This document shows, piece by piece, positions 7,873 to 38,600 of a stretch of 64,000 bases of DNA. How positions within the stretch are numbered: the stretch's first letter is position 1; every line of letters starts with the position of its first letter. Under the pieces are notes generated by a model, which was not told where the DNA came from, searched no databases, and worked only from the letters and a program-made list of their open reading frames with translations. The stretch lies in the NCBI GenBank assembly GCA_963834265.1, contig CAWIAU010000001.1, forward strand, positions 263,572-327,571, in the 5' to 3' direction. Origin of the DNA: an uncultured bacterium (GTDB taxonomy: Bacteria; Patescibacteriota; Saccharimonadia; Saccharimonadales; 2-12-FULL-41-12). The translations under genes and the position numbers were made by a program.

Positions 7873-7883
7873 TATTTTTGATT

Positions 7884-8133: not shown

Positions 8134-8173
8134 ACAGTTGAGAGATATTGATTCTACATTGTTAAATAGCATC

Positions 8174-8774: not shown

Positions 8775-8803
8775 TTGACCGCCCCTGTTATTCTTGCTAA
8801 GCT
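8775..8803 (+). promoter_or_regulatory. candidate promoter for the 23S-5S unit
   Basis: TTGACC (8775-8780), a 17-nt spacer, then TAAGCT (8798-8803) with a TGc extension. It shares the cTTGACC -35 with the 16S promoter. Confidence 0.45.
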
Positions 8804-9102: not shown

Positions 9103-9160
9103 AGGAAAAAGAGCAGCGCAGCGATGAGAAAAAACCTGAGGTTTTGTCTCATTATGTTCG
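9103..9160 (+). repeat. structured motif copy A (immediately upstream of the 23S 5' end)
   Basis: AGGAAAAAGAGCAGC-GCAGCGATGAGAAAAAACCTGAGGTTTTGTCTCATTATGTTCG. Homologous to copies B and C. Confidence 0.7.
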
Positions 9161-9439
9161 TAAAAAGTTAATTAAGCGCACAAAATGGATGCCTTGACGT
9201 AAGATACCGATGAAGGACGTAGAAGGCTGCGAAAAGCTTCGGGGAGCTGCCAATCAAGCTTTGAACCGAAGATATCCGAATGGGGAAACCCGGGTAGAGT
9301 AATGTCTATTCACCCGTAATTGAATTCATAGATTACGTGGCGGTAACCGTGGGAACTGAAACATCTTAGTACCACGAGGAAGAGAAAGTAAACAACGATT
9401 CCGGAAGTAGTGGCGAGCGAAACCGGAATAGCCCAAACC

Positions 9440-9655
9440 TTTTATTACTTTCGCACTCTTCACTCCGTGATTAAGCAATGAGAATTGCTGGTCCGTAGTG
9501 ATGAGTGTGAATAAGCTGGTAGGCGAATGTATAAGAGGGGTTGTGACATCACAAAAACCTTTTGTGGAAGTCCGGATTTATCCGGGTTTCTGCATAAGGG
9601 AGCAGGATCTACCATGTCCTGCATAAGGTTACAAATTGCTGAGCAAGTAGAACAG
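9440..9655 (+). other. 23S domain I expansion (~170 nt more than E. coli)
   Basis: About 215 nt lie between conserved GCGAAaccGGaatAGCCCA and GGAAAGacagGcc. My recalled E. coli alignment has about 45 nt there. Confidence 0.55.
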
Positions 9656-11040: not shown

Positions 11041-11301
11041 CCGTCACAGTGTTTATCACTGCGGCTTGAGAATGTAGCGCCAGTTTTCTTTTCAGAAAAC
11101 AACAGAAGCGATGATGAGTTTTTAACTTCTCTAAAGTCGCCCTGTATAAACGAGTAAAAAAGATTCTGTCTGATACTTCAATTCCTTCGCCGGAAGCTTC
11201 GGCTTTGGCATGGAAGCGATAGTGTCCGATAGAATTTCATTGAGATTGAGAAGAAAGCTGACCTCTATAAGCACATACTTTGGTAAGTACTGTGACGGGG
11301 C
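11041..11301 (+). other. 23S helix-63-region expansion / possible intervening sequence (~260 nt)
   Basis: Closed by an 11-bp stem CCGTCACAGTG (11042-11052) / TACTGTGACGG (11289-11299). It replaces a helix of about 45 nt between GGGAtAAGG.. and ..AACTGTTTAccAAAAACACAG. Confidence 0.6.
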
Positions 11302-12181
11302 CGCAGCTAAGGAACCCATGGAACTGTTTACCAAAAACACAGGTCTCTGCTAACACGAAAGTGGATGTATAGGGGCTGACTCCTGCCCGGTGCCGGAAGG
11401 TTAAGGGGAGCGCTTTACGGTGCGAACTGAAGCCCCGGTGAACGGCGGCGGTAACTATAACCGTCCTAAGGTAGCGAAATTCCTTGTCAGGTAAGTTCTG
11501 ACCTGCACGAATGGAGTAATCATATGGGTACTGTCTCAACGAAGAGCTCGGTGAAAGTGCATTGACGGTAAAGATGCCGTCTGTCCGCAGCAGGACGAAA
11601 AGACCCTGTGCAGCTTTACTACAGCTTGACATTGAATCGAGCTGCAACATGTGTAGTATAGTTGGGAGACTTTGAAGCCCGGACGCTAGTCCGGGTGGAG
11701 TCGTTAGTGAAATACCAACCTTGTTGTAGTTTTATTCTTACCGAACCCTTTATGGGTAAATAAGATATTTATTTTGTTTATCTATACAGGGTTCGGAACC
11801 GTGTCTGGTGGGTAGTTTAACTGGGGCGGTTGCCTCCTAAAGAGTAGCGGAGGCGTTCAAAGGTTGGCTAGTTACGGATGGAAATCGTAATGATAGTGCA
11901 TACGCATAAGCCAGCTTGACTGTGAGGCCTACAAGCCAAGCAGGGACGAAAGTCGGAGTAAGTGATCCGCTGTCCTTACATTTATGTAAATGAACGTGGG
12001 ATCGACAGCGCAAACGGATAAAAGTTACGCCAGGGATAACAGGCTTATAGCGCCCAATAGTTCACATAGACGGCGCTGTTTGGCACCTCGATGTCGGCTC
12101 ATCTCATCCTGGAGGGGGAGCACCTTCCAAGGGTCCGGCTGTTCGCCGGTTAAAGAGGTACGTGAGCTGGGTTCAGAACGT

Positions 12182-12595
12182 AAATTACATTGCGTTCTAC
12201 TCTCGAGAGGGAGTAATGTGCTGATTAACATCGAATCATTAGCACTAAAACTAACTAAAATCGGTGAAACCCTATCTGGATTCGAACGTTCTAGAGGGCG
12301 ATACCGAGGGTAAGCGCCAGTGTAATGCTGGTTTGATCCCGTAGAGACTGATCTGGAAAACTTGCCTAGTAAGCATGTGGAACAGTGAGAATGATTGCTT
12401 TTGCAAGATTTCATACGTTAGCCCCTTAACTATTACAACTTAGGTTAAGGGTGAAGATATAGTCCACGCCAATAGTAATATTGGATAAAGCTCGCTCTTT
12501 GTCTTAATAGGGAAAAGGAGCAGCCCGACAAAATGTATTCCATTTTGCCGGCGCGATGAGGAAAAACCGCAGGTTGTTCCTCATGAGTGTACGTG
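12182..12595 (+). mobile_element. group I intron (414 nt, no ORF) inserted after 23S U2593 (E. coli numbering)
   Basis: The exon junction restores GGGTTCAGAACGT|CGTGAGACAGTTCGG. The 5' exon ends in U and the intron ends in G (12595). The internal guide GCGTTCT (12192-12198) pairs with exon AGAACGT, including a U-G pair. An S-element AAGATATAGTCC-like core (GAAGATATAGTCC ~12453-12466) and a P7 partner AGAGACTGA are present. Confidence 0.85.
12509..12595 (+). repeat. structured motif copy B (3' terminal domain of the group I intron)
   Basis: AGGGAAAAGGAGCAGC-[26-nt hairpin]-GCGCGATGAGGAAAAACCGCAGGTTGTTCCTCATGAGTGTACG. Confidence 0.7.
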
Positions 12596-13050
12596 CGTGA
12601 GACAGTTCGGTTTATATCCGCTGTGGACGTCAGGAAATTTGAGAGGATTTGCCCCTAGTACGAGAGGACCGGGGTGAACGCACCGCTGGTGTACCAATTG
12701 TCATACCAATGGCATCGTTGGGTAGCTATGTGCGGAACAGATAAGCGCTGAAAGCATATTAAGCGCGAAACTGACCTCAAGATTAGATTTCCCTATGAGG
12801 GCCCTGATAGACGATCAGGTTGATAGGTACACGGTGTACGCATAGCAATATGTTTAGCCTAAGTATACTAATAGCCCCACAGATTTTTTGTGAACCATGA
12901 GACCAATTTACTTCGGTGAGTTGATCTCATGGGAATGTATTTGGCTAGTTATTTGTAGTAACTAATAAACAACGTCCGTTTATATTAACTTTTGTCAGTC
13001 ATATCGACACCACATGGACACCGAGTGAGTGAGACTTACGCCTCCCTCCC

Positions 13051-13162
13051 TCGGTGCCCATGGCGCGAGGGAAACACCTGTTCCCATCCCGAACACAGCA
13101 GTTAAGCCTCGCAGCGGTTACAATACTTGGGTTTTAACCCTGGGAAAATAGCACGGTGCCGA
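13051..13162 (+). rRNA. rrf: 5S ribosomal RNA
   Basis: Helix I TCGGTGCC/GGTGCCGA. Conserved CCCATCCCGAACACAGCAGTTAAGCC (loop B/helix III region). 112 nt. Confidence 0.9.
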
Positions 13163-13173
13163 TTTATATAGAA

Positions 13174-18761: not shown

Positions 18762-18826
18762 GTTGGCAGTTATTTACTAATATAAATAGTAAAAACTAAA
18801 ACAAAAACCAAAAACAAAAACAAATA

Positions 18827-21800
18827 ATGCTTTCTCAGCGACCACGATTCTATAACCTGTTGGTTAGGGGTAAATCCCTGGCATTAGTTTTCCTGCTCCT
18901 GTTTCTGACAGGAGTTTTTTCTTATACGCGCACGCATACACCTACGCCCGTATACGCGGCTACCTCTGCTAATATCAATTTTCAGGCCCGGCTCCAGTCA
19001 GCCAGCGGAGCTATCGTTCCGGACGGCAACTATCACATGGAGTTTAAACTTTATACATCTGCCAGCGGTGGCTCAGCTGTTTGGACTGAGACCCGAAGTA
19101 CCGGTAACCTAGTCAGAACAGTAAACGGTTATCTGACAGTAAATCTTGGCAGCGTAAACGCCTTTCCTTCCGGAATGAACTGGGATCAGGAACACTGGCT
19201 GACCATGAATGTTGGCGGAAGTGGCGGCTCTCCGGTCTATGATGGCGAAATGACACCCCGGCTCAAACTTACAGCCACACCGTACGCCTTTAGTGCCGGC
19301 CAGCTTCGCAAAACCCTTGGTGCAAACACCAGTGTCCTGGACTTCCTGAACCCGACTGCTAACAGGACGCTTAATCTACCGGATCAGGACGGTACTCTTT
19401 GTGTTCAGGGATCACCTGATTGTGTTGATGTGGCTACCACAGGGACTACTGCCACGACATCAAGCAATTCCGGATTGGAGATCGGTATTGATGGATTACG
19501 GCTATTGGGAGGTTGTAGCGATAACCAGTCACTCAAATGGGATGCAACCGCAGAAGAGTGGAAGTGTACCTCAGGTAGCGGATCGTCAATCGGCGTCCGT
19601 GAAAGCGACGGATCGCCCAGCATGTCAGCCGATGTTATAGAGTTTGGCCCGTCAGGCGCATCTGACAGCGAATTTATTGTTACGAACGAAGGCAGTGGTG
19701 TCAGCAGGATACGATTAGGAAACGACGTACTATTGCTCACTAACTATGCCGCTACACTCGACGCTACCTACGTAAACGAATCCCAGTCGCCGGCCGCCGG
19801 CGATGTCTCCGGTTCATTCACAGCCGGTTTCAGTGTTAACGATGTCCAGAACAATGCCGTTGATCTGGGAGCCGAGACAGTCGGGGACTACATGGCCAAC
19901 CTCGGCACCGTAGTCGGATTAACTATTACAGGCACTAACAGTGGCGAAGGCAGTACGCCGGGCCTTAGTGTTACTTACGGATTCGGTGCTAACACCGCCG
20001 TACAGGGCAGCACCCAGCTTACCTGTGCTTCCGGCAGTGGTGATCTGTCCGGTGGCGGCACTGTCATAACTCTGGGCAGCGGCGGTACCTGCGGTGCCAT
20101 AACCATATCCGAAGCCCCCGTCTTTGATACCAGCGTTACCACCCCGCTTATTACTTACGGCGGCGCCCTGACCATCCAGACCACCGCTACCGGTGGCGCT
20201 GATGATCTGATCTTTAAAACCGCCGGCACGGAAGTTATGCGCCTGCTGGAAAACGGCAATATTTATCTGGAGAAAGGCACTAATGATGTCACCATAGCCG
20301 TAAATGCTCCCGGTGCCGCCGCCACCTACACCTTTGACGGAGCCAGCGGAACTATCCTGACCACTGCCAACTACGTTACTAACCTCGACGCTACCTACGT
20401 AAACGAATCCCAGTCGCCGGCCGCCGGCGATGTCTCCGGTTCATTCACAGCCGGTTTCAGTGTTAACGATGTCCAGAACAATGCCGTTGATCTGGGAGCC
20501 GAGACAGTCGGGGACTACATGGCCAACCTCGGCACCGTAGTCGGATTAACTATTACAGGCACTAACAGTGGCGAAGGCAGTACGCCGGGCCTTAGTGTTA
20601 CTTACGGATTCGGTGCTAACACCGCCGTACAGGGCAGCACCCAGCTTACCTGTGCTTCCGGCAGTGGTGATCTGTCCGGTGGCGGCACTGTCATAACTCT
20701 GGGCAGCGGCGGTACCTGCGGTGCCATAACCATATCCGAAGCCCCCGTCTTTGATACCAGCGTTACCACCCCGCTTATTACTTACGGCGGCGCCCTGACC
20801 ATCCAGACCACCGCTACCGGTGGCGCTGATGATCTGATCTTTAAAACCGCCGGCACGGAAGTTATGCGCCTGCTGGAAAACGGCAATATTTATCTGGAGA
20901 AAGGCACTAATGATGTCACCATAGCCGTAAATGCTCCCGGTGCCGCCGCCACCTACACCTTTGACGGAGCCAGCGGAACTATCCTGACCACTGCCAACTA
21001 CGTTACTAACCTCGACGCTACCTACGTAAACGAATCCCAGTCGCCGGCCGCCGGCGATGTCTCCGGTTCATTCACAGCCGGTTTCAGTGTTAACGATGTC
21101 CAGAACAATGCCGTTGATCTGGGAGCCGAGACAGTCGGGGACTACATGGCCAACCTCGGCACCGTAGTCGGATTAACTATTACAGGCACTAACAGTGGCG
21201 AAGGCAGTACGCCGGGCCTTAGTGTTACTTACGGATTCGGTGCTAACACCGCCGTACAGGGCAGCACCCAGCTTACCTGTGCTTCCGGCAGTGGTGATCT
21301 GTCCGGTGGCGGCACTGTCATAACTCTGGGCAGCGGCGGTACCTGCGGTGCCATAACCATATCCGAAGCCCCCGTCTTTGATACCAGCGTTACCACCCCG
21401 CTTATTACTTACGGCGGCGCCCTGACCATCCAGACCACCGCTACCGGTGGCGCTGATGATCTGATCTTTAAAACCGCCGGCACGGAAGTTATGCGCCTGC
21501 TGGAAAACGGCAATATTTATCTGGAGAAAGGCACTAATGATGTCACCATAGCCGTAAATGCTCCCGGTGCCGCCGCCACCTACACCTTTGACGGAGCCAG
21601 CGGAACTATCCTGACCACTGCCAACTACGTTACTAACCTCGACGCTACCTACGTAAACGAATCCCAGTCGCCGGCCGCCGGCGATGTCTCCGGTTCATTC
21701 ACAGCCGGTTTCAGTGTTAACGATGTCCAGAACAATGCCGTTGATCTGGGAGCCGAGACAGTCGGGGACTACATGGCCAACCTCGGCACCGTAGTCGGAT

Positions 21801-24800
21801 TAACTATTACAGGCACTAACAGTGGCGAAGGCAGTACGCCGGGCCTTAGTGTTACTTACGGATTCGGTGCTAACACCGCCGTACAGGGCAGCACCCAGCT
21901 TACCTGTGCTTCCGGCAGTGGTGATCTGTCCGGTGGCGGCACTGTCATAACTCTGGGCAGCGGCGGTACCTGCGGTGCCATAACCATATCCGAAGCCCCC
22001 GTCTTTGATACCAGCGTTACCACCCCGCTTATTACTTACGGCGGCGCCCTGACCATCCAGACCACCGCTACCGGTGGCGCTGATGATCTGATCTTTAAAA
22101 CCGCCGGCACGGAAGTTATGCGCCTGCTGGAAAACGGCAATATTTATCTGGAGAAAGGCACTAATGATGTCACCATAGCCGTAAATGCTCCCGGTGCCGC
22201 CGCCACCTACACCTTTGACGGAGCCAGCGGAACTATCCTGACCACTGCCAACTACGTTACTAACCTCGACGCTACCTACGTAAACGAATCCCAGTCGCCG
22301 GCCGCCGGCGATGTCTCCGGTTCATTCACAGCCGGTTTCAGTGTTAACGATGTCCAGAACAATGCCGTTGATCTGGGAGCCGAGACAGTCGGGGACTACA
22401 TGGCCAACCTCGGCACCGTAGTCGGATTAACTATTACAGGCACTAACAGTGGCGAAGGCAGTACGCCGGGCCTTAGTGTTACTTACGGATTCGGTGCTAA
22501 CACCGCCGTACAGGGCAGCACCCAGCTTACCTGTGCTTCCGGCAGTGGTGATCTGTCCGGTGGCGGCACTGTCATAACTCTGGGCAGCGGCGGTACCTGC
22601 GGTGCCATAACCATATCCGAAGCCCCCGTCTTTGATACCAGCGTTACCACCCCGCTTATTACTTACGGCGGCGCCCTGACCATCCAGACCACCGCTACCG
22701 GTGGCGCTGATGATCTGATCTTTAAAACCGCCGGCACGGAAGTTATGCGCCTGCTGGAAAACGGCAATATTTATCTGGAGAAAGGCACTAATGATGTCAC
22801 CATAGCCGTAAATGCTCCCGGTGCCGCCGCCACCTACACCTTTGACGGAGCCAGCGGAACTATCCTGACCACTGCCAACTACGTTACTAACCTCGACGCT
22901 ACCTACGTAAACGAATCCCAGTCGCCGGCCGCCGGCGATGTCTCCGGTTCATTCACAGCCGGTTTCAGTGTTAACGATGTCCAGAACAATGCCGTTGATC
23001 TGGGAGCCGAGACAGTCGGGGACTACATGGCCAACCTCGGCACCGTAGTCGGATTAACTATTACAGGCACTAACAGTGGCGAAGGCAGTACGCCGGGCCT
23101 TAGTGTTACTTACGGATTCGGTGCTAACACCGCCGTACAGGGCAGCACCCAGCTTACCTGTGCTTCCGGCAGTGGTGATCTGTCCGGTGGCGGCACTGTC
23201 ATAACTCTGGGCAGCGGCGGTACCTGCGGTGCCATAACCATATCCGAAGCCCCCGTCTTTGATACCAGCGTTACCACCCCGCTTATTACTTACGGCGGCG
23301 CCCTGACCATCCAGACCACCGCTACCGGTGGCGCTGATGATCTGATCTTTAAAACCGCCGGCACGGAAGTTATGCGCCTGCTGGAAAACGGCAATATTTA
23401 TCTGGAGAAAGGCACTAATGATGTCACCATAGCCGTAAATGCTCCCGGTGCCGCCGCCACCTACACCTTTGACGGAGCCAGCGGAACTATCCTGACCACT
23501 GCCAACTACGTTACTAACCTCGACGCTACCTACGTAAACGAATCCCAGTCGCCGGCCGCCGGCGATGTCTCCGGTTCATTCACAGCCGGTTTCAGTGTTA
23601 ACGATGTCCAGAACAATGCCGTTGATCTGGGAGCCGAGACAGTCGGGGACTACATGGCCAACCTCGGCACCGTAGTCGGATTAACTATTACAGGCACTAA
23701 CAGTGGCGAAGGCAGTACGCCGGGCCTTAGTGTTACTTACGGATTCGGTGCTAACACCGCCGTACAGGGCAGCACCCAGCTTACCTGTGCTTCCGGCAGT
23801 GGTGATCTGTCCGGTGGCGGCACTGTCATAACTCTGGGCAGCGGCGGTACCTGCGGTGCCATAACCATATCCGAAGCCCCCGTCTTTGATACCAGCGTTA
23901 CCACCCCGCTTATTACTTACGGCGGCGCCCTGACCATCCAGACCACCGCTACCGGTGGCGCTGATGATCTGATCTTTAAAACCGCCGGCACGGAAGTTAT
24001 GCGCCTGCTGGAAAACGGCAATATTTATCTGGAGAAAGGCACTAATGATGTCACCATAGCCGTAAATGCTCCCGGTGCCGCCGCCACCTACACCTTTGAC
24101 GGAGCCAGCGGAACTATCCTGACCACTGCCAACTACGTTACTAACCTCGACGCTACCTACGTAAACGAATCCCAGTCGCCGGCCGCCGGCGATGTCTCCG
24201 GTTCATTCACAGCCGGTTTCAGTGTTAACGATGTCCAGAACAATGCCGTTGATCTGGGAGCCGAGACAGTCGGGGACTACATGGCCAACCTCGGCACCGT
24301 AGTCGGATTAACTATTACAGGCACTAACAGTGGCGAAGGCAGTACGCCGGGCCTTAGTGTTACTTACGGATTCGGTGCTAACACCGCCGTACAGGGCAGC
24401 ACCCAGCTTACCTGTGCTTCCGGCAGTGGTGATCTGTCCGGTGGCGGCACTGTCATAACTCTGGGCAGCGGCGGTACCTGCGGTGCCATAACCATATCCG
24501 AAGCCCCCGTCTTTGATACCAGCGTTACCACCCCGCTTATTACTTACGGCGGCGCCCTGACCATCCAGACCACCGCTACCGGTGGCGCTGATGATCTGAT
24601 CTTTAAAACCGCCGGCACGGAAGTTATGCGCCTGCTGGAAAACGGCAATATTTATCTGGAGAAAGGCACTAATGATGTCACCATAGCCGTAAATGCTCCC
24701 GGTGCCGCCGCCACCTACACCTTTGACGGAGCCAGCGGAACTATCCTGACCACTGCCAACTACGTTACTAACCTCGACGCTACCTACGTAAACGAATCCC

Positions 24801-27388
24801 AGTCGCCGGCCGCCGGCGATGTCTCCGGTTCATTCACAGCCGGTTTCAGTGTTAACGATGTCCAGAACAATGCCGTTGATCTGGGAGCCGAGACAGTCGG
24901 GGACTACATGGCCAACCTCGGCACCGTAGTCGGATTAACTATTACAGGCACTAACAGTGGCGAAGGCAGTACGCCGGGCCTTAGTGTTACTTACGGATTC
25001 GGTGCTAACACCGCCGTACAGGGCAGCACCCAGCTTACCTGTGCTTCCGGCAGTGGTGATCTGTCCGGTGGCGGCACTGTCATAACTCTGGGCAGCGGCG
25101 GTACCTGCGGTGCCATAACCATATCCGAAGCCCCCGTCTTTGATACCAGCGTTACCACCCCGCTTATTACTTACGGCGGCGCCCTGACCATCCAGACCAC
25201 CGCTACCGGTGGCGCTGATGATCTGATCTTTAAAACCGCCGGCACGGAAAAAATTCGAATATTAGAAAATGGCACACTGGTATTTGGTACTGGTGCCAAC
25301 AGTGCTAATTTGTACTTGTCTGCAAATGACACTCTGAGGACGGATGATCTGTTTGTAGCAGGAGCAGGATTAAGCGTGTTAGCAAATGGTGCTACAATTG
25401 CTGGTGATTTCAGTATCGACGGACTGGTATTTGATCCAACAGGTAATCTTGTGCTAAACGACACCGTGGATATTGGCTCAGCTACAACAGGACTTCGGGT
25501 AAATACGGACGGGTCAATATTCGACATTGATGGTGTTCTTGTTTTAAACGATCAACTAAACCTAGGCTCATCCTCAACAGGTCTATTAATTACTACATCA
25601 GGAATAATTACGGATATTGATGGGGCAAGTGTTGTATTTGGTGAAAACATCACTGTAAATACAGGAGGTATTACCGTAACAGGCAATAGCACTATTAATG
25701 GGACGCTCGGGTCTTTGACCGGCTTGACTGTAATTAGTGGAGGAGCATCGATAAGTGGAGGCTTGAATAATAACAGTGGCGGACTGACTAACGCCGGATC
25801 TATTACAGGAGTAGGCGGTAATATAACAGGATCAGGAAGTATGACTATATCCTCCGGAGCTGCTGCGGCACTGACGCTAGATTCCGGAACAACCGGTGGC
25901 CTGAACATCGGCACCGGCAATAATGCCAAAACCATCAATATCGGCACCGGTACGGCCGGCAACGCTATCAACATCGGTACCAATAACACCACGGCCGACA
26001 CGATCCAGATTGGCTCGGCTCTGGATACGCTGACGCTCACGGGTTCCTCTTTAACTACATTTGTAATCAACGCAATAACCGTAGACGCTACCGAGTTTAA
26101 CCGGCTCGACGGCAAAAACGCAGCACTGGTTGATGAAAATGACTTCATCAGCGGGGACGGAACTGGCGGTACAAGCAATGGGTCCGGATTGGAAGCAGGT
26201 ACCGGTGGAATTGGGCTATTGCAAGGTTGCACCAACAATCAAATTTTGAAATGGGTAGATGCAAGTTCTGTCTGGAACTGCGCGGCTGACGCCACAGGTA
26301 TTTCTGATTCCCGGGTTAAGAAAAATGTCCAAACTGTCGAAGGAGCTATGCTGGATAAAATTAAGGATATTCGGGTAGTAGAATTTGACTATGACTGCAC
26401 CAGCCCGGCGTTTGCTTACCAGCACTGCGACATAGACCACCAAACAGGTGTTATCGCGCAGGAACTTGCTCAAATCTTTCCGGAACTTGTCACCCAGGAT
26501 GAGCACGGCTATTATAGCGTTAGATACGACGCATTAGCCATCTATAACCTCAAAGCCGTGGGAGAACTAGCACGTTCGTTAGATTCTCAAGGTAACGGTA
26601 AGTTTAATAATGTTTCATCAAATTCACTTGTTGTAAAAGGAGATATTATAGCTGGCACAATCCGTGCTGACAGGATAGAAGGCCTGGACTATGTTGGCCG
26701 GTTTGAATCTTTGGAAGAAAGAGTAGACCATCTTGAGAAAAATAATAACTTTCAGAATAATAACTTTGCGGGCACAGTAGAAGTTGGTTCATTGATTGCC
26801 AATAAAGAAGTTGACCTAAAAAATGATGTGCGAATTAACGGTAGCACAGACCTGCAGAGATTAAATGTAAATCTTGCTTTAATCGCCAAAGACTCCTTTG
26901 AAGTGCTAGGAAGATCTACCTTCAAAGAGGCGTCCGGATTCGAGAAAGATGTACATTTTGATGGCCAAATTAACGTGCTTGGTTACACGAATGTCCAGGG
27001 CCTAAGCGTAAACCTTGACTTGATTGTTAAAGGCTCATTGCAGCTCGACGGGCCGGCCACCTTCAAGGAGGCAGTCAAATTCGAGAAAGACGCTGAATTT
27101 GCGGGTAATGTGTCTGTAAAAGGACAGGCCACGTTCAACGGTGATACGGCGGGGTATGCCATCATTAAAAAAGGCGAAAAAAGCCTTGCGATTAAGTTTA
27201 AAAACCCTAAGCCACAAATACCGATCGTTACCATGTCGCTTGGTAATGGCAAGTTTGCCTCCTACAGTTACCAGAATGTAACAAAAGAGGGCTTCGAGAT
27301 TATTCTGGCTAATGCCGCTGACGAAGATCTTAGCTTCTCATGGATTGCTATTCTAACCCAAAGTGAGGAAATTTCTGCTATGCCGTAG
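18827..27388 (+). CDS. giant repetitive fibre/adhesin-like surface protein 1 (2,853 aa) with internal S74-type autoprocessing domain
   Basis: Uninterrupted 8,562-nt ORF. It has an N-terminal signal/anchor (LALVFLLLFLTGVF), 8.76 identical 209-aa repeats, G/T/N-rich repeats, ISDSRVKKNV..GVIAQELAQIFPELV..YSVRYDALAIYNLKA (S74/ICA pattern), and then 361 aa counted from the Ser to the C-terminus. Confidence 0.9.
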   Translation: MLSQRPRFYNLLVRGKSLALVFLLLFLTGVFSYTRTHTPTPVYAATSANINFQARLQSASGAIVPDGNYHMEFKLYTSASGGSAVWTETRSTGNLVRTVNGYLTVNLGSVNAFPSGMNWDQEHWLTMNVGGSGGSPVYDGEMTPRLKLTATPYAFSAGQLRKTLGANTSVLDFLNPTANRTLNLPDQDGTLCVQGSPDCVDVATTGTTATTSSNSGLEIGIDGLRLLGGCSDNQSLKWDATAEEWKCTSGSGSSIGVRESDGSPSMSADVIEFGPSGASDSEFIVTNEGSGVSRIRLGNDVLLLTNYAATLDATYVNESQSPAAGDVSGSFTAGFSVNDVQNNAVDLGAETVGDYMANLGTVVGLTITGTNSGEGSTPGLSVTYGFGANTAVQGSTQLTCASGSGDLSGGGTVITLGSGGTCGAITISEAPVFDTSVTTPLITYGGALTIQTTATGGADDLIFKTAGTEVMRLLENGNIYLEKGTNDVTIAVNAPGAAATYTFDGASGTILTTANYVTNLDATYVNESQSPAAGDVSGSFTAGFSVNDVQNNAVDLGAETVGDYMANLGTVVGLTITGTNSGEGSTPGLSVTYGFGANTAVQGSTQLTCASGSGDLSGGGTVITLGSGGTCGAITISEAPVFDTSVTTPLITYGGALTIQTTATGGADDLIFKTAGTEVMRLLENGNIYLEKGTNDVTIAVNAPGAAATYTFDGASGTILTTANYVTNLDATYVNESQSPAAGDVSGSFTAGFSVNDVQNNAVDLGAETVGDYMANLGTVVGLTITGTNSGEGSTPGLSVTYGFGANTAVQGSTQLTCASGSGDLSGGGTVITLGSGGTCGAITISEAPVFDTSVTTPLITYGGALTIQTTATGGADDLIFKTAGTEVMRLLENGNIYLEKGTNDVTIAVNAPGAAATYTFDGASGTILTTANYVTNLDATYVNESQSPAAGDVSGSFTAGFSVNDVQNNAVDLGAETVGDYMANLGTVVGLTITGTNSGEGSTPGLSVTYGFGANTAVQGSTQLTCASGSGDLSGGGTVITLGSGGTCGAITISEAPVFDTSVTTPLITYGGALTIQTTATGGADDLIFKTAGTEVMRLLENGNIYLEKGTNDVTIAVNAPGAAATYTFDGASGTILTTANYVTNLDATYVNESQSPAAGDVSGSFTAGFSVNDVQNNAVDLGAETVGDYMANLGTVVGLTITGTNSGEGSTPGLSVTYGFGANTAVQGSTQLTCASGSGDLSGGGTVITLGSGGTCGAITISEAPVFDTSVTTPLITYGGALTIQTTATGGADDLIFKTAGTEVMRLLENGNIYLEKGTNDVTIAVNAPGAAATYTFDGASGTILTTANYVTNLDATYVNESQSPAAGDVSGSFTAGFSVNDVQNNAVDLGAETVGDYMANLGTVVGLTITGTNSGEGSTPGLSVTYGFGANTAVQGSTQLTCASGSGDLSGGGTVITLGSGGTCGAITISEAPVFDTSVTTPLITYGGALTIQTTATGGADDLIFKTAGTEVMRLLENGNIYLEKGTNDVTIAVNAPGAAATYTFDGASGTILTTANYVTNLDATYVNESQSPAAGDVSGSFTAGFSVNDVQNNAVDLGAETVGDYMANLGTVVGLTITGTNSGEGSTPGLSVTYGFGANTAVQGSTQLTCASGSGDLSGGGTVITLGSGGTCGAITISEAPVFDTSVTTPLITYGGALTIQTTATGGADDLIFKTAGTEVMRLLENGNIYLEKGTNDVTIAVNAPGAAATYTFDGASGTILTTANYVTNLDATYVNESQSPAAGDVSGSFTAGFSVNDVQNNAVDLGAETVGDYMANLGTVVGLTITGTNSGEGSTPGLSVTYGFGANTAVQGSTQLTCASGSGDLSGGGTVITLGSGGTCGAITISEAPVFDTSVTTPLITYGGALTIQTTATGGADDLIFKTAGTEVMRLLENGNIYLEKGTNDVTIAVNAPGAAATYTFDGASGTILTTANYVTNLDATYVNESQSPAAGDVSGSFTAGFSVNDVQNNAVDLGAETVGDYMANLGTVVGLTITGTNSGEGSTPGLSVTYGFGANTAVQGSTQLTCASGSGDLSGGGTVITLGSGGTCGAITISEAPVFDTSVTTPLITYGGALTIQTTATGGADDLIFKTAGTEKIRILENGTLVFGTGANSANLYLSANDTLRTDDLFVAGAGLSVLANGATIAGDFSIDGLVFDPTGNLVLNDTVDIGSATTGLRVNTDGSIFDIDGVLVLNDQLNLGSSSTGLLITTSGIITDIDGASVVFGENITVNTGGITVTGNSTINGTLGSLTGLTVISGGASISGGLNNNSGGLTNAGSITGVGGNITGSGSMTISSGAAAALTLDSGTTGGLNIGTGNNAKTINIGTGTAGNAINIGTNNTTADTIQIGSALDTLTLTGSSLTTFVINAITVDATEFNRLDGKNAALVDENDFISGDGTGGTSNGSGLEAGTGGIGLLQGCTNNQILKWVDASSVWNCAADATGISDSRVKKNVQTVEGAMLDKIKDIRVVEFDYDCTSPAFAYQHCDIDHQTGVIAQELAQIFPELVTQDEHGYYSVRYDALAIYNLKAVGELARSLDSQGNGKFNNVSSNSLVVKGDIIAGTIRADRIEGLDYVGRFESLEERVDHLEKNNNFQNNNFAGTVEVGSLIANKEVDLKNDVRINGSTDLQRLNVNLALIAKDSFEVLGRSTFKEASGFEKDVHFDGQINVLGYTNVQGLSVNLDLIVKGSLQLDGPATFKEAVKFEKDAEFAGNVSVKGQATFNGDTAGYAIIKKGEKSLAIKFKNPKPQIPIVTMSLGNGKFASYSYQNVTKEGFEIILANAADEDLSFSWIAILTQSEEISAMP
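19757..25249 (+). repeat. in-frame tandem repeat, 8.76 x 627 bp, no differences seen between copies
   Basis: The landmark ACGCTACCTA recurs at 19761, 20388, 21015 and onward. GGCACGGAA at 20225 and 25241 are 8 x 627 bp apart. All translated units are identical. Confidence 0.95.
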
Positions 27389-29680: not shown

Positions 29681-32600
29681 ATGTATCAAGAAACTCAAAC
29701 CAAAAGCCGTTCCAGAGTGTACGTTACCGTAGGTGATGCGGCGGAGCTATTAGGTGTTTCTATCGATACTGTCCGACGTTGGGAAAAGAGCGGCAAACTG
29801 CATGCTAAACGATTAGATGGCAAGAATCGATACTTCCCCAAAGATGAATTAGAGCAATTCAGAGCTCATCAGCCCCTGTCTACAACAGAAGTGGCTAAGC
29901 GACTTAAGACCTCTGCTTCCAGCGTACGTCGTCTCGAAGCTAGTGGCCAGATAACGGCTGACCGTGCTGAGAACGGAAAGCGTCTTTACTCTTTGGCAAG
30001 TATAGTTGACTATTTGGAAAGTAAATCTGCTCCATTGCAACCAGCAATATCAGATAAACAGGAATTAGCGTCAGGTGTAGCCCTGAATCAGGTAACACCG
30101 ATGCCGGCACTGACTATCGCACCGCCACCGCGTCAACATACCCCGCGTCATGGATTAAAGCATCATTTACAGCAGCCTAAGAAGTTATGGGCTACTCATT
30201 CCGGCAGATTAAATTACCATATTTTTCAAAAAGTAATCATCTATAGTGCTACGGCATGTGTCTCCGTAGTGATGATATTGACGCTATTCTTTCTGATGTT
30301 TCCGGGAACTGCCCGCACGACATTTTATAATCAATCCCATAACAGTGGTAAACAGTTTGTTTCGAAACAAGCTGACGGTCTCTTAGTACGGGCCTTCAAG
30401 CCCTTTACAAATGCAGCCCTGGGCGTTGTCGAGGTAGTTAACCCGGAAGTCCGCAATACTATTCAGCCTAGGGCCATAGATGACGTGAATGAAGTATTCG
30501 CGCCTGACTCGCAGGGAAATATTATCACCAGGTACACCTTTAGCCCGCCGAACTCATCTTATCTGAAGATACCAGATCAGGGGTTAGTTACAAATCTGAA
30601 TAGTGAATTTGTCGGAGGCTATAAACCGGGCGAAAAGAAAGGAGATCTGGCTATCTTACCTCTGGGAGGTGATCAGCTTAAAGATAAGTCACTTAATGGT
30701 GACCAGCTGGCCGATGGAGCAATTAAGCTTAGCCATCTTTCTCCTACTTTGATAGCTTCTCTGAAGAGCGGAGGCACAGGAGGAAGTACTTTTGTAAGCG
30801 GTGCTGGCAGCGCCGGACCAGCAGGCCCATCAGGAGTTAACGGGGCGGCTGGAGCTGCAGGTGCCAACGGTGCTCCCGGTTCTCAAGGAGTAGCAGGTCC
30901 AGCCGGAGCAGCCGGACCTGCTGGATCACAAGGAGCTAACGGGGCACCGGGTGCTCCAGGAGCACAAGGCCCGACTGGTCCGCAAGGACCTCCAGGCGCT
31001 GGAGCTACGATAGCCTTGCAAGAGTCTGACGGTAGTCCGCTGGTTAGCGGCGTATCAAACATACAGTTTGGACCCACCAGCAACTCTTCTGACGAGTTTA
31101 TCCTGACAGACTTAACAGGAGGTCAGGTACGAATACAACTGGGCACTACGGTGCTTCTAACAACGAATTACACTACTACTCTGGATCCTATATATCTCAA
31201 TATTGGAGAATCTCCCGGGATCGGAGATATTACGGGCAGCTTCAGCGGGGGTTTGCAGGTAGCACCTGATGCGGTGGCGCTAGGTACCGATACCACTGGT
31301 AATTATTTAACTACTCTATCTGGCAGCACGGGTCTAATTGTCAGTGGATCGGGTTCAGAAAATGCGGCAGCTAGCATTGCTTTAGACGTAGTTACTACTG
31401 GTACAACAGGATTGTCCAGTGCCAACTCCGGGCTTGAGTTGGGTCCCGACGGTCTGCGTTTGCTTGGTGGATGCGCAACAAACCATGTATTGAAATGGAA
31501 CGGAACTACTTGGGCATGTGCTACCGATAACAGTAGTAGCGCTGCTGATGTTAAGGAAAATGGTGTAATTATTACTCCCACAGCAACAGCTATAGATTTT
31601 TTCGGTTCAGATTTTAATGTAACCAACAATGTTACGCAGGCAAATATAGCATTAGATTATATTAACTCGGGAATTACTCGTCGCACGGGGGCAGAGATAA
31701 TAAGCGGCAACTGGGCATTTAATGATAATAGCTTTACGCTGCAAGATAATGCTGACTCTAGTAAAAAACTTGCAATAGAATTATCGGGAATTACAACAGG
31801 AACAACGCGTACTTTAACAGCCCCAAACGCCAGCGGGACCATCATTAGCACGGGGAATTTAACTGACATTGTAAATGTGGGTACGCTCACAAGCGGTGTT
31901 TGGCAGGGTTCTGTTGTAGCCGTGCAGTATGGGGGAACAGGGGCCAACACCTTTACGTCTAACGGATTGCTATATGGAAATGGCAACAGTGCTGTACAGG
32001 CCACATCCGCGGGCACGGCCGGACAATTATTAGTTGCAAATGCTAGCAGTGTACCAACGTTTGCTACTCTATCGGGTGATGCGACCTTATCTGGCGCCGG
32101 CCTGCTAACATTAGCTAACTCGGGCGTTACAGCAAATACTTATGGAAGCTCAACTCAGGTACCGGTTTTTGCGGTTGACTCAAAAGGTAGAATCACTAAT
32201 GTAACTAATACAACAATAACAGGGGTCGCACCGGGTGGAACCGCCGGAGGTGATTTGAGTGGAACTTATCCCAACCCAAGCGTTTCAAGAATCAATGGAG
32301 TCGCTCTTGGTAGTACAACGGCAACGGGAGGAAATTTGCTGCTTGCCAATGGTACAAGCTGGGTCAGTCAAGCTCTTTCGGGAGATTTAAGTGTAAATGG
32401 GGCAGGCGTTGCCTCGATAGCAAACAACGCCATCAGTACCTCAAAAATTTTGGACGCCAATGTAACAAACATTAAATTAGCAAACTCCTCCTTAACAGTT
32501 ATGGCTGGAACAGGATTATCTGGCGGAGGAGCTATAAGTTTAGGTGGCACGACTACGCTTAACTTAGCTAATACGGCTGTATCGGCAGGGAGTTACGGCA

Positions 32601-35600
32601 GTAGCTCCGCGGTCCCTACTTTTACTGTAGATTCCCAGGGACGGCTGACAATGGCTGGTAATACAACCTTAGCTAATGCGGGACTGCAGAATTCAAGTTT
32701 GACCTTAACAGCGGGCAATGGACTAGCCGGGGGAGGAAGCGTTGCTTTAGGCGCATCTACAAGCCTTAACGTTCAGTATGGTGCTATCGCGAATACATCT
32801 GTCCAAGGCAATACTCAGATTACTTGTACGCCTGGTGCTGGTAATTTGTCCGGAGGGGGTACGGTTATAACACTGGGCTCAGGTGGAGCATGTGGTGCTA
32901 TTAATACGAATGCAGCGGTAAATTTTGCTACAAGTGTTACAACTCCACTACTTACGTCCATTGGTCCGATTACAATACAATCTGATCCCAGTGTTGGTAG
33001 TGACGACATAATATTCAATAGTGCCGGTAGCGAGATTTTTCGTTTACTTGAAACAGGGGAATTTAAGTTTGAACGCGGCTCAAACGATGCGTTCTTTTCT
33101 ATTGCAACTCCTAGTGGCGCGCCTGCTACTTATACTTTTTCCGGCGTATCCGGAACTGTCCTTACTAGTTCAAATTTCAGCAGTAGCTTAGACAGTTCTT
33201 ATGTGAACATAGGCGAATCCCCGTCAGCTGGCGACATTAACGGATCATTTGGGGGAGGTTTAAGCATTGGATCAGACGCAGTTGCTTTAGGGACAGACAC
33301 TACAGGCAACTATCTGGCTACACTTAGCGGAGGCACAGGATTGACAGTTACTGGATCTGGCAGCGAAAGTGCTGCGGTGACTTTAGCGCTCGATGTAATA
33401 ACTACAGGAACAACAGCTACTACAAACTCTAACTCTGGCTTAGAACTCGGTAGTGACGGGCTAAGATTGCTGGGGGGTTGTGCTTCTAATGAGATACTCA
33501 AATGGAATGGATCAACTTGGGCTTGCGCTGCAGATAATGGTACCGGAGCTGCTCCCACACTTCAAGAGAATTATGACAATGATCCCAATGGAGCGAATGT
33601 GATAATTGGATTGTCCAATGTTGACGGGGGTATATTTATTCGTGATAACGCGTCGCCAATTGGCGGTAACTTATTTGCCGTACAAAGCGACGGAGGTAGC
33701 ACTACTTATTTAGGTATCACTGCAAGTGGATCCAGCGTATCGGGAACTTTCTCGGCGACCGGTGCTATTAATGGCGCCACCATTTCTGGTGGCTCTCTAA
33801 ACTCTACTTCGGTTAATGGTCTTAGTGTTTCGGGGGGCATTATAACTGTGGGTACCTGGAATGGTACTGCTCTAACAGACTCTTATGTTTCTGATACTCT
33901 AACCTCAAGTATTTTCATAGGTTCAGGAAGTACATCAAATGCTGTAGATTTAGCTAGTGCCGAAGTAGCCGGCAGCCTGGCCGACGGAAATGTCTCAGAT
34001 ACCTTAACCATAGGTGCTTCCGGCAGCGTGGCTGACGGAGCTTTAAGTGTCAACGTGACTAAACTGGGGACTGCCATAGACCTGGCTACAGCTGAGGTAG
34101 CCGGTAATCTGAGAGCTAATAATCTGCAGAGTGCCGGAGCCGACCTTGGCGCGACTAATGTTAACATTGACCTGAGCAATACCAACGGAAGCTTCGTCAC
34201 CAACTTAACCGTAGACGGTACTATTACTGCCGCTACCTTTGCCGGCAACCTGACAGGTAATGTCACCGGCAACGCTTCAACCGCTACCGCTCTGGCTAAC
34301 AATCCGACAGATTGCGGAGCCAACCAGTTCGCCATTACCATTGCCGCCAGCGGTAACCTGACCTGCGCCGCGCTGACTGATGCCGATATACCGAATAACA
34401 TTACAATTGATCTGGCTGCCAACGCCACCACAGCTGTTAATCTGGTTGGTTCCGGCAGTACCACCAATGCCGTAGATCTGGCTACAGCTGAGGTATCCGG
34501 CAACTTACGGGCTAACAACCTGCAGAACGCCGCCGCCGACCTGGGAGGAGCTGACGTCAACATTAACCTCAGCAATACCAACGGAAGCTTCGTGACTAAT
34601 CTGACGGTTGACGGCACCATCACCGCCGCCACCTTTGCCGGCGCTCTTACGGGCAATGTCACCGGTAATGTCACCGGCAACGCTTCAACCGCTACCGCTC
34701 TGGCTAACAATCCGACAGATTGCGGAGCCAACCAGTTCGCCATTACCATTGCCGCCAGCGGTAACCTGACCTGCGTGTCCTTAACAGATCTGGATATACC
34801 GAACAACATTACAATTGATCTGGCTGCCGCCGCTACCGCGCTGGCTAACAACCCCACTGACTGTAGCGCTGATACTTACGCTACTACTATCGCTGCCAGC
34901 GGTAACCTGACTTGTGCTTCCATTACCGACGCTTCATTATCTGCTAACGTCACTAAACTGGGCAGTAGTATCCAAAACAGTGAAGTAGACGACGACCTGA
35001 CTATTAGTGCTTCCGGCAGCGTGGCTGACGGAGCTTTAAGTGTCAACGTGACTAAACTGGGGACTGCCATAGACCTGGCTACAGCTGAGGTAGCCGGTAA
35101 TCTGAGAGCTAATAATCTGCAGAGTGCCGGAGCCGACCTTGGCGCGACTAATGTTAACATTGACCTGAGCAATACCAACGGAAGCTTCGTCACCAACTTA
35201 ACCGTAGACGGTACTATTACTGCCGCTACCTTTGCCGGCAACCTGACAGGTAATGTCACCGGCAACGCTTCAACCGCTACCGCTCTGGCTAACAATCCGA
35301 CAGATTGCGGAGCCAACCAGTTCGCCATTACCATTGCCGCCAGCGGTAACCTGACCTGCGCCGCGCTGACTGATGCCGATATACCGAATAACATTACAAT
35401 TGATCTGGCTGCCAACGCCACCACAGCTGTTAATCTGGTTGGTTCCGGCAGTACCACCAATGCCGTAGATCTGGCTACAGCTGAGGTATCCGGCAACTTA
35501 CGGGCTAACAACCTGCAGAACGCCGCCGCCGACCTGGGAGGAGCTGACGTCAACATTAACCTCAGCAATACCAACGGAAGCTTCGTGACTAATCTGACGG

Positions 35601-38600
35601 TTGACGGCACCATCACCGCCGCCACCTTTGCCGGCGCTCTTACGGGCAATGTCACCGGTAATGTCACCGGCAACGCTTCAACCGCTACCGCTCTGGCTAA
35701 CAATCCGACAGATTGCGGAGCCAACCAGTTCGCCATTACCATTGCCGCCAGCGGTAACCTGACCTGCGTGTCCTTAACAGATCTGGATATACCGAACAAC
35801 ATTACAATTGATCTGGCTGCCGCCGCTACCGCGCTGGCTAACAACCCCACTGACTGTAGCGCTGATACTTACGCTACTACTATCGCTGCCAGCGGTAACC
35901 TGACTTGTGCTTCCATTACCGACGCTTCATTATCTGCTAACGTCACTAAACTGGGCAGTAGTATCCAAAACAGTGAAGTAGACGACGACCTGACTATTAG
36001 TGCTTCCGGCAGCGTGGCTGACGGAGCTTTAAGTGTCAACGTGACTAAACTGGGGACTGCCATAGACCTGGCTACAGCTGAGGTAGCCGGTAATCTGAGA
36101 GCTAATAATCTGCAGAGTGCCGGAGCCGACCTTGGCGCGACTAATGTTAACATTGACCTGAGCAATACCAACGGAAGCTTCGTCACCAACTTAACCGTAG
36201 ACGGTACTATTACTGCCGCTACCTTTGCCGGCAACCTGACAGGTAATGTCACCGGCAACGCTTCAACCGCTACCGCTCTGGCTAACAATCCGACAGATTG
36301 CGGAGCCAACCAGTTCGCCATTACCATTGCCGCCAGCGGTAACCTGACCTGCGCCGCGCTGACTGATGCCGATATACCGAATAACATTACAATTGATCTG
36401 GCTGCCAACGCCACCACAGCTGTTAATCTGGTTGGTTCCGGCAGTACCACCAATGCCGTAGATCTGGCTACAGCTGAGGTATCCGGCAACTTACGGGCTA
36501 ACAACCTGCAGAACGCCGCCGCCGACCTGGGAGGAGCTGACGTCAACATTAACCTCAGCAATACCAACGGAAGCTTCGTGACTAATCTGACGGTTGACGG
36601 CACCATCACCGCCGCCACCTTTGCCGGCGCTCTTACGGGCAATGTCACCGGTAATGTCACCGGCAACGCTTCAACCGCTACCGCTCTGGCTAACAATCCG
36701 ACAGATTGCGGAGCCAACCAGTTCGCCATTACCATTGCCGCCAGCGGTAACCTGACCTGCGTGTCCTTAACAGATCTGGATATACCGAACAACATTACAA
36801 TTGATCTGGCTGCCGCCGCTACCGCGCTGGCTAACAACCCCACTGACTGTAGCGCTGATACTTACGCTACTACTATCGCTGCCAGCGGTAACCTGACTTG
36901 TGCTTCCATTACCGACGCTTCATTATCTGCTAACGTCACTAAACTGGGCAGTAGTATCCAAAACAGTGAAGTAGACGACGACCTGACTATTAGTGCTTCC
37001 GGCAGCGTGGCTGACGGAGCTTTAAGTGTCAACGTGACTAAACTGGGGACTGCCATAGACCTGGCTACAGCTGAGGTAGCCGGTAATCTGAGAGCTAATA
37101 ATCTGCAGAGTGCCGGAGCCGACCTTGGCGCGACTAATGTTAACATTGACCTGAGCAATACCAACGGAAGCTTCGTCACCAACTTAACCGTAGACGGTAC
37201 TATTACTGCCGCTACCTTTGCCGGCAACCTGACAGGTAATGTCACCGGCAACGCTTCAACCGCTACCGCTCTGGCTAACAATCCGACAGATTGCGGAGCC
37301 AACCAGTTCGCCATTACCATTGCCGCCAGCGGTAACCTGACCTGCGCCGCGCTGACTGATGCCGATATACCGAATAACATTACAATTGATCTGGCTGCCA
37401 ACGCCACCACAGCTGTTAATCTGGTTGGTTCCGGCAGTACCACCAATGCCGTAGATCTGGCTACAGCTGAGGTATCCGGCAACTTACGGGCTAACAACCT
37501 GCAGAACGCCGCCGCCGACCTGGGAGGAGCTGACGTCAACATTAACCTCAGCAATACCAACGGAAGCTTCGTGACTAATCTGACGGTTGACGGCACCATC
37601 ACCGCCGCCACCTTTGCCGGCGCTCTTACGGGCAATGTCACCGGTAATGTCACCGGCAACGCTTCAACCGCTACCGCTCTGGCTAACAATCCGACAGATT
37701 GCGGAGCCAACCAGTTCGCCATTACCATTGCCGCCAGCGGTAACCTGACCTGCGTGTCCTTAACAGATCTGGATATACCGAACAACATTACAATTGATCT
37801 GGCTGCCGCCGCTACCGCGCTGGCTAACAACCCCACTGACTGTAGCGCTGATACTTACGCTACTACTATCGCTGCCAGCGGTAACCTGACTTGTGCTTCC
37901 ATTACCGACGCTTCATTATCTGCTAACGTCACTAAACTGGGCAGTAGTATCCAAAACAGTGAAGTAGACGACGACCTGACTATTAGTGCTTCCGGCAGCG
38001 TGGCTGACGGAGCTTTAAGTGTCAACGTGACTAAACTGGGGACTGCCATAGACCTGGCTACAGCTGAGGTAGCCGGTAATCTGAGAGCTAATAATCTGCA
38101 GAGTGCCGGAGCCGACCTTGGCGCGACTAATGTTAACATTGACCTGAGCAATACCAACGGAAGCTTCGTCACCAACTTAACCGTAGACGGTACTATTACT
38201 GCCGCTACCTTTGCCGGCAACCTGACAGGTAATGTCACCGGCAACGCTTCAACCGCTACCGCTCTGGCTAACAATCCGACAGATTGCGGAGCCAACCAGT
38301 TCGCCATTACCATTGCCGCCAGCGGTAACCTGACCTGCGCCGCGCTGACTGATGCCGATATACCGAATAACATTACAATTGATCTGGCTGCCAACGCCAC
38401 CACAGCTGTTAATCTGGTTGGTTCCGGCAGTACCACCAATGCCGTAGATCTGGCTACAGCTGAGGTATCCGGCAACTTACGGGCTAACAACCTGCAGAAC
38501 GCCGCCGCCGACCTGGGAGGAGCTGACGTCAACATTAACCTCAGCAATACCAACGGAAGCTTCGTGACTAATCTGACGGTTGACGGCACCATCACCGCCG

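Follow-up and report, generated by a model that had tools for sequence, protein, structure and literature searches.

The window analysed in this work is a stretch of 64,000 nucleotides from contig CAWIAU010000001.1 of an uncultured bacterium (assembly GCA_963834265.1). It contains two adjacent giant genes, referred to here as gene 1 and gene 2, which are paralogues and each carry a multi-kilobase tandem array in frame (array 1 and array 2; Table 1). Array 1 had been described, from an inspection of the nucleotide sequence, as 8.76 copies of a 627-bp unit without visible nucleotide differences, located in frame inside gene 1; this original prediction was followed up by computational analysis.

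When the window was compared with itself at an offset of 627 bp, an exact match was observed over positions 19757-24622; the array thus delimited is 5493 bp long and holds 8.76 units of 627 bp. Chance cannot account for an exact self-match of 4866 bases. In a copy-by-copy comparison, copies 1-8 showed no difference from copy 1, and copy 9 was identical through unit position 477 and divergent from there. The array lies in phase 0 of the open reading frame (ORF) of gene 1, of which it encodes amino acids (aa) 311-2141. The predicted period, coordinates, copy number and reading frame, as well as the absence of differences between copies, were all recovered by these comparisons. Neither array was reported by Tandem Repeats Finder, because the longest period considered by this program is 500, and the offset self-comparison was used instead. 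A terminator-like hairpin detected once per unit was discarded, as it is a weak consensus match multiplied by the array and not independent evidence.

Within a few bases beyond both edges of array 1, identity at offset 627 falls to about 25%, the random level. The sharp divergence that had been predicted at the array edges is therefore correct for DNA, but it needs refinement for the protein, where diverged remnants of the repeated module are recognizable in both flanks: 'LLLTNYAATLDAT' on the left, compared with 'ILTTANYVTNLDAT' inside the array, and 'KIRILENG' on the right, compared with 'VMRLLENG' inside the array.

Table 1. Position of the two giant genes, their arrays and other features in the window (numbered from the first nucleotide of the window).
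Feature	Position	Strand	Description
Giant gene 1	18827..27388	+	2853-aa predicted surface fibre protein; uninterrupted ORF; Peptidase_S74; orthologues P0127, P0135 and P0006 in syntenic loci
AAAAAC tract	18791..18824	+	A-rich imperfect hexamer tract, 5.5 copies (Tandem Repeats Finder); ends 2 nt before the gene 1 start codon
Non-repeated N-terminal region of gene 1	18827..19756	+	aa 1-310; 71.5-73.6% identical to the P0127 and P0135 N-termini; ends in the module-end remnant 'LLLTNYAATLDAT'
Array 1	19757..25249	+	8 complete 627-bp (209-aa) units and the first 477 bp of a ninth; 0 differences
Reference unit (unit 1)	19757..20383	+	Copy 1 of array 1; one whole family module; two nearly invariant cysteines (C90 and C112 of the unit)
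Right flank of array 1	25250..25345	+	Diverged tail of the last module ('KIRILENGTLVFGTGANSANLYLSANDTLRTDD'); corresponds to the M3 end of P0135 ('AGTERLRLLENGQLIFGTGANSANLYLSANDTLRTDD'); flank aligned with the internal continuation
Peptidase_S74 domain of gene 1	26303..26494	+	Pfam PF13884, E = 1.1e-12, 48.5 bits for a cut-off of 22; starts at 'SDSRVK' (aa 2493)
C-terminal beta-sandwich domain of gene 1	27149..27352	+	Predicted H-type-lectin-like (AlphaFold2 model and Foldseek)
Giant gene 2	29681..41272	+	3863 aa, paralogue of gene 1; two N-terminal MerR/HTH_17 domains, hydrophobic segment, collagen G-X-Y, module, array 2, Peptidase_S74, lectin-like end
Array 2	34014..39154	+	993-bp (331-aa) unit x 5.18, in frame, 0 differences; internal 408-bp sub-repeat
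16S rRNA gene	2285-3754		
23S rRNA gene	9161-12892		3732 nt, compared with a 2925-nt model

The domain content of the gene 1 product is that of a tail-fibre-like protein. In a Pfam search for which array 1 was collapsed to 1.76 units, Peptidase_S74, an intramolecular chaperone domain known from endosialidases and tail fibres, was the sole match, outside the array, and tail-fibre families of the PHROG database matched the same stretch. The serine and lysine of the S74 motif are present in both giant proteins ('GISDSRVKK' in gene 1, aa 2493; 'GISDSRLKD' in gene 2, aa 3399); S-D-x-R-x-K, a serine with a lysine five residues downstream, is what we take, from the endoNF literature, to be the S74 cleavage-site motif. 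The domain is internal in both proteins. The part that runs from its conserved serine to the C-terminus has 361 residues in gene 1 and 465 in gene 2, and comprises a coiled-coil-like segment and a lectin-like domain. The stalk of gene 1, which contains array 1, is long and rich in glycine, threonine and serine. The N-terminus, read directly from the translation, consists of basic residues, then the hydrophobic SLALVFLLLFLTGVF, then 'VYA/ATS', and is predicted to be either a signal peptide or a signal anchor. No obvious ribosome-binding site was visible upstream of the start codon, at the AAAAAC tract, which could act as a slippage-prone leader of the gene.

An AlphaFold2 model of the last 125 aa of gene 1 had a mean predicted local distance difference test score (pLDDT) of 84, with a core above 90. 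The best Foldseek matches of this model in the PDB were H-type lectins, namely the Helix pomatia and H. aspersa agglutinins (E = 2.4e-3, TM-score about 0.42-0.5), discoidin II and SLL-2, together with pyocin and phage fibre ends; the Foldseek probability of these matches was 1.0, but their E-values were only 2e-3 to 4e-2 (2e-3 to 1e-2 for the agglutinins and fibre ends). The same region gave no Pfam hit to the H-type lectin domain PF09458, which is precomputed for the homologue P0009. The C-terminal lectin-like domain is the probable binding end of the gene 1 fibre.

Gene 2 has a similar outer part. Its Peptidase_S74 domain scores 54.4 bits for a Pfam cut-off of 22, and its end matches Pfam H_lectin (PF09458) with 21.6 bits, below the cut-off of 24 (E = 2.4e-4). 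The protein holds one single diverged copy of the gene 1 module, which shares 50% identity with the unit. At the right edge of array 2 the decay is gradual, with two mismatches followed by 20 identical bases. Five 324-aa ORFs on the minus strand inside array 2 were considered and rejected as genes; they are by-products of the repeated GC-rich sequence. The start of gene 2 (29681-30991) encodes the two MerR/HTH_17 domains, the hydrophobic segment and the collagen G-X-Y stretch (aa 379-437), before the giant outer part. The fusion of a DNA-binding-type domain to a giant surface fibre is odd, and this HTH plus S74 plan is common to gene 2, to at least the homologues P0002 and P0018, and to P0126, the longer protein of locus L028 (see below). 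Collagen repeats and S74 domains both belong to trimeric fibres. Pfam searches of both giant genes, with the arrays collapsed, gave neither a Rib domain nor a YadA-type membrane anchor. It is the domain context, and not the structure of the repeat, that supports the reading of these proteins as fibres.

The unit of array 1 is a member of a large family of modules. BLAST comparison of unit 1 with a first set of homologues revealed one to six diverged copies per protein, at 25-66% identity; these modules often form tandems with a spacing of about 200 aa, and the alignments span unit positions 1-209. At E <= 0.001, a profile built from 35 modules (alignment A1) retrieved 608 representative proteins, in which as many as 17 stretches per protein were matched; in this alignment C90, C112 and several glycines were nearly invariant. 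The amplified piece is exactly one structural building block. Unit 1 gave no Pfam match, and the PDB returned nothing in sequence or profile searches; a model of the unit had no significant structural match, and its top fold matches, all non-significant, were extended trimeric fibres or spikes. P0127 and P0135, which are the true orthologues, were absent from the first homology search and surfaced only in the profile search of representatives.

The history of array 1 can be read from these orthologues. In locus L029/L030, which has the same DUF4287 and DUF1801 genes upstream and a similar small ORF downstream, the orthologous protein (P0135, 2447 aa) contains three diverged modules, M1-M2-M3, at the site of the array. 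At the protein level, unit 1 shares 88.5% identity with M1, 84.2% with M2 and 71.0% with M3, and the N-terminal flanks share 73.6%. The last residues of M3, '...AGTERLRLLENGQLIFGTGANSANLYLSANDTLRTDD', are the sequence that follows array 1 in the window. At the DNA level unit 1 is 75.4% identical to L029-M1, a nucleotide divergence of 24.6%; of the 154 differences, 119 lie at third codon positions. It was also observed that contigs from the Joint Genome Institute (JGI) and from Logan stop inside the gene downstream of the gene 1 orthologue, which occupies the place of gene 2 (L029 20204-24004 and L030 13753-15489; 1267 and 579 residues, respectively); a repeat array in that gene may have broken these assemblies too.

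Two other orthologous loci were found. In the syntenic locus L027, P0006 has a single module and is followed by an orthologue of the 172-aa ORF of the window (62% identity over a 100-residue local alignment). In locus L028, P0127 (2636 aa) has an array of its own, 639 bp x 6.6 (L028 10970-15185); it adjoins a gene-2-like protein and lies upstream of ROK, S1, IF-2 and fmt. Copies 1-3 of this array are identical, copies 4-6 are mutually identical, and the two blocks differ at 7 clustered nucleotides, which is what stepwise duplication of neighbouring copies would leave. Its left edge lies at the same 'LDA.YVN' motif as that of the window array, and its right edge lies elsewhere. The two giant genes are in reverse order in L028 (1-17911) compared with the window: the gene-2-like P0126 (4334 aa), which has about 10 diverged copies of the gene 1 module, comes before the gene-1-like P0127.

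Module numbers in the orthologues of other species are thus 1, 3 (diverged) and 6.6, compared with 8.76 here, and this variation is between species. Because the L029 orthologue has three diverged modules, differing by 24.6% of nucleotides, where the window has 8.76 identical ones, the homogenisation and expansion are specific to the lineage of the window; a separate homogenisation and expansion in the L028 lineage is the simplest reading of the second array. The proposal that array 1 results from recent expansion or homogenisation was thereby supported. So was the idea of a fibre of variable length, with about 209 aa added per unit, given that the unit is a whole module, that module number differs among orthologues and that the protein has tail-fibre features.

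We consider it likely that array 1 is genuine and arose, in this lineage specifically, as a single structural module expanded and was homogenised in a giant surface-fibre gene of a Saccharibacteria-type bacterium. The ancestral gene would have had about three diverged modules of about 210 aa in tandem, and in the lineage of the window the M1 type would have spread over M2 and the first 159 aa of M3, to reach 8.76 identical copies. Adjacent 627-bp copies without differences lend themselves ideally to unequal homologous recombination and replication slippage, and the spread most likely occurred by one of these processes between neighbouring copies, with gene conversion perhaps contributing. Since one unit corresponds to a complete module and its length is divisible by three, each gain or loss would add or remove 209 aa without disturbing the rest of the protein. 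The product is predicted to be built like a phage tail fibre, with an N-terminal export or anchor segment, a stalk that carries the array, a Peptidase_S74 chaperone and a lectin-like C-terminal domain. Because of this domain plan, the most likely function of the array is that of an extensible spacer, which would set the reach of the binding end from the cell and, in an epibiont, plausibly toward the host cell.

The repeat itself is present in the sequencing reads. In the Logan k-mer assembly of run ERR12037361, the products of gpsA and of the 210-aa ORF that follows gene 2 are identical to those of the window; one contig of this assembly stops at 19781, 25 nt inside array 1, and a second one begins at 39125, 30 nt before the end of array 2, exactly as expected for k = 31 (first flank-specific base 39155). 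Because this independent assembly breaks at, or within 5 nt of, the outer array edges, repeats with these outer boundaries are truly in the reads. It confirms the repeat and cannot count its copies, and the caution of the original prediction, that copy number is provisional, was justified; the recorded number should not be taken as fixed for this organism. It is unlikely that an artefact of assembly or polishing mis-counted the copies or erased real differences between them. Both genomes that have multi-copy arrays are large contigs (720 kb here, 1.19 Mb for L028), for which we infer a long-read origin, the L028 contig name following the pattern of a long-read assembler; the loci fetched from two other scans, mostly from metagenome-assembled genomes (MAGs) or metagenome contigs, never had multi-copy arrays, and the exact gene 1 product is on record nowhere else. 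All this would suit an artefact, but array-free loci are also expected if k-mer assembly collapses such arrays, and some contigs stop inside the genes in question. In addition, both arrays keep the frame and are made of whole protein modules, in ORFs of 8.6 kb and 11.6 kb that have no frameshift, and the orthologous array of an independent genome, L028, retains its 7 copy-specific differences in ordered blocks, so that copies were not flattened in that assembly. Another explanation is acquisition of the array as a foreign cassette, from a GC-richer organism or a phage; the GC content of the unit (0.566, compared with 0.45-0.51 in the flanks) and the tail-fibre-like domains of the protein speak for it. 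This explanation is close to refuted: unit 1 corresponds by position to M1 of its syntenic orthologue P0135, the concentration of their differences at third positions is what vertical descent leaves, remnants of this module persist in the flanks, and the surroundings are core chromosomal genes. On orthology and the pattern of third-position divergence, a foreign origin of the unit was rejected, and we take the unit to be native.

Alternatives also concern the timing of the expansion and the role of the repeats. By our calculation, given the absence of differences in 5493 bp, the copies have accumulated at most about 5.5e-4 substitutions per site (95% upper bound) since they last shared a common copy; the divergence between unit 1 and L029-M1 is over two orders of magnitude larger. 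Such a low bound would also follow from a single, very recent amplification burst with no ongoing homogenisation, the GC content of the unit then resulting from codon selection or from the composition of the founding copy; we regard this as a serious possibility, although not a probable one. It accounts less well for the third-position GC, which is raised in the unit of array 1 (0.598, compared with 0.439 in the rest of gene 1; Fisher p = 3.7e-5), in that of array 2 (0.556, compared with 0.373 in the rest of gene 2; p = 5.6e-10) and in that of L028 (0.784, compared with 0.502 in the rest of its gene; p = 5.5e-15). Three independent arrays are thus 0.16-0.28 above their own genes, whereas no such rise is seen in the three modules of L029 that are orthologous but not amplified (p = 0.12-0.61); the single unamplified module of gene 2 has a value of 0.29. 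A shift as large as this implies that many substitutions had to be fixed in all copies, and therefore repeated homogenisation. The overwriting of neighbouring diverged modules (M2 and most of M3 are missing) and the gradual decay of the right edge of array 2, which resembles the end of a gene-conversion tract, also argue against a burst. In its favour, the polarised third-position bias is weak: with L029-M2 as outgroup, changes from A or T to G or C (W>S) and in the opposite direction (S>W) were 19:12 in the window lineage and 8:18 in the L029 lineage. The L028 unit was tried as an outgroup and was uninformative, being itself GC-enriched. GC skew turns negative inside the arrays. Overall, raised third-position GC fits repeated GC-biased homogenisation better than a single young burst, but it tilts the balance only weakly, and codon selection is a possible alternative source. 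As for function, the repeats might be mainly binding units, nine identical modules serving multivalent host attachment or forming an immunodominant or decoy surface, with selection acting on how many sites there are rather than on length. Pfam and PDB searches by sequence and fold gave the module no known fold or function, it is highly conserved, with its two cysteines and several invariant glycines, and repeat roles beyond scaffolding have been little studied (PMC9704523). We nevertheless find this doubtful, because the module occurs once or a few times, diverged and interleaved with other stalk segments, in hundreds of fibre-like proteins, because a separate lectin-like domain is present at the C-terminus, and because the top fold matches of the unit, although non-significant, are extended trimeric fibres or spikes.

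Several points weigh against the expansion of a spacer module in a fibre gene as we propose it. The Logan break at the left edge of array 1 is 5 nt short of the k = 31 expectation, possibly because part of the population carries a variant near 19782. The assembly is the sole source for the copy number and for the freedom from rare copy-specific variants, and consensus polishing could have smoothed variants. The predicted N-terminal segment could be a cleaved signal peptide, which would leave the anchoring of the protein uncertain. If S74 cleaved itself as in phages, the lectin-like end would be cut off, which is awkward for a simple spacer or stalk model. The monomer model of the unit was poor (pLDDT 70, predicted TM-score 0.48, mostly coil) and lends no support to a rod or spacer shape. 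Finally, no second genome of the same species was found by exact look-up, homology search, genome-contig scan or metagenome scan. Exact look-ups of the gene 1 product and of the downstream 172-aa ORF returned no record; a word-indexed search with the unit alone gave nothing at E <= 1e-20, common words having probably saturated the candidate list; the genome-contig scan retrieved no close relative and only distant fibre genes of the candidate phyla radiation (CPR), via low-complexity peptide motifs; and the metagenome scan retrieved many module-bearing loci and no multi-copy high-identity array.

Taking the GC data together with the domain plan, we tentatively suggest that the arrays are long-lived tracts held identical by frequent GC-biased recombination within the array; the number of 209-aa modules might then vary in the population and tune the reach of a lectin-tipped trimeric fibre toward the host. 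Ultra-small epibionts with minimal genomes would in that case run a system akin to that of the Periscope proteins (see below), made of trimeric proteins of the phage-tail-fibre type. This is possible, but we would not call it probable. If it were true, the GC signature could mark actively homogenised tracts from sequence alone.

The other genes of the window are core genes: gyrA, gpsA, the genes for ribosomal protein S1 and initiation factor IF-2, fmt, def, priA, adk, map, ftsA, ftsZ, nrdR and the gene for ribonucleotide reductase. Homologues of the giant protein that have a named source are mostly labelled Saccharibacteria or Saccharimonadales. The proteins flanking the giant genes are recorded on one contig of 720,390 bp in NCBI and ENA, and in a Logan assembly. 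We conclude that the window is part of the chromosome of a Saccharibacteria-type bacterium (CPR/Patescibacteria), and not a prophage. The window also contains a 5S rRNA gene. The rRNA genes (2285-13164) are unlinked, with a gap of 5.4 kb between 16S and 23S, and tRNA-Ile and tRNA-Ala are on the opposite strand; the region between 16S and 23S has an HNH endonuclease ORF (4856-5368, minus strand) and a 228-bp repeat x 1.9 (4673-5103). A group I intron match at 12172-12485 in the 23S gene is below threshold (38 bits, compared with 50). A third large ORF downstream of the IF-2 gene (47584-50493, 969 aa) has no Pfam match, and its GC content is high at codon positions 1 and 2 and low at position 3, like that of the non-repeated parts of the fibre genes.

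Surface-protein arrays that change length are already known. Periscope proteins are variable-length surface proteins with high-identity tandem repeats, such as SasG/Aap, Rib/alpha C/R28, Sgo_0707 (SHIRT), Esp and CdrA; they are defined by repeats of >50 residues with >=80% identity, by a repeat number that varies between strains, and by rods that project a functional domain (PMC8201768, PMC9704523). Homologous recombination is the mechanism proposed for them (PMC9704523). The repeats of array 1 are 209 aa long and present in 8.76 copies with 100% DNA and protein identity. As in Periscope proteins, long high-identity repeats lie in frame in a large protein, here predicted to be exported, with a distinct domain at the far end, the arrays are visible only in long-read assemblies, which is the probable type here, and repeat number differs between related genomes, here between species. 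The differences are as follows. Periscope proteins are monomeric single-chain rods of self-folding domains of 50-165 residues, multimeric stalks being excluded, whereas here the S74 domain and the collagen repeats of the paralogue point to a trimer; the protein is therefore probably not made of monomeric, independently folding domains of that size. The unit has 209 aa (331 aa in gene 2), and its monomer model was not confidently folded. Gene 1 has no sortase or wall-anchor motif, and no wall-anchor domain was found in its Pfam search with the array collapsed. The collection surveyed for Periscope proteins consisted of cultured, mostly pathogenic bacteria, whereas the present organism is a CPR epibiont.

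The gene 1 product also resembles phage tail fibres, tailspikes and endosialidases of the endoNF/K1F type, by an S74 domain well above threshold, the 'SDSRVK' motif, the PHROG matches, a glycine-, threonine- and serine-rich stalk upstream and a C-terminal domain similar to the ends of pyocin and phage fibres. It differs from phage S74 proteins in that the gene is chromosomal, among housekeeping genes, in that an N-terminal export or anchor segment is present, and in that S74 is internal, whereas the phage chaperone lies at the extreme C-terminus and releases itself by cleavage once the trimer has folded. Perfect multi-kilobase arrays are, to our knowledge, not a described feature of phage S74 fibre proteins. 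A further resemblance is with the collagen-like exosporium filaments of the Bacillus BclA type and trimeric autotransporter adhesins, which share with the giant proteins a probably trimeric surface fibre, a length set by repeat number and, for gene 2, collagen G-X-Y repeats. The repeats of BclA and of trimeric autotransporters are short (triplets, coiled-coil or neck motifs) and mosaic, in contrast with the identical modules of 209-331 aa found here, and Pfam searches with the arrays collapsed gave no autotransporter anchor and no BclA C-terminal domain in either giant gene. According to the Periscope review, trimeric autotransporters may play a role similar to that of Periscope proteins. What is new here is the probably trimeric, tail-fibre-like protein of a CPR bacterium and the unusual length of its units; in the literature we found no paper on such arrays in Saccharibacteria, nor on S74 in combination with Saccharibacteria.

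The most original lead is the GC signature of homogenised arrays. If general, it would provide evidence for GC-biased conversion inside bacterial genes and a practical marker of active homogenisation. A practical consequence of these arrays is that genome bins from short reads systematically miss or truncate such genes, since in relatives the contigs stop within them. Saccharibacteria in cultivation are found attached to host bacteria, and several surface adhesins have proved necessary for epibiotic growth in transposon screens (PMC10633639, PMC11665869). The form and variation of Saccharibacteria adhesins are largely uncharted, and the presence of two adjacent giant fibre genes with multi-kilobase perfect arrays suggests that these minimal genomes invest in surface fibres of adjustable length.

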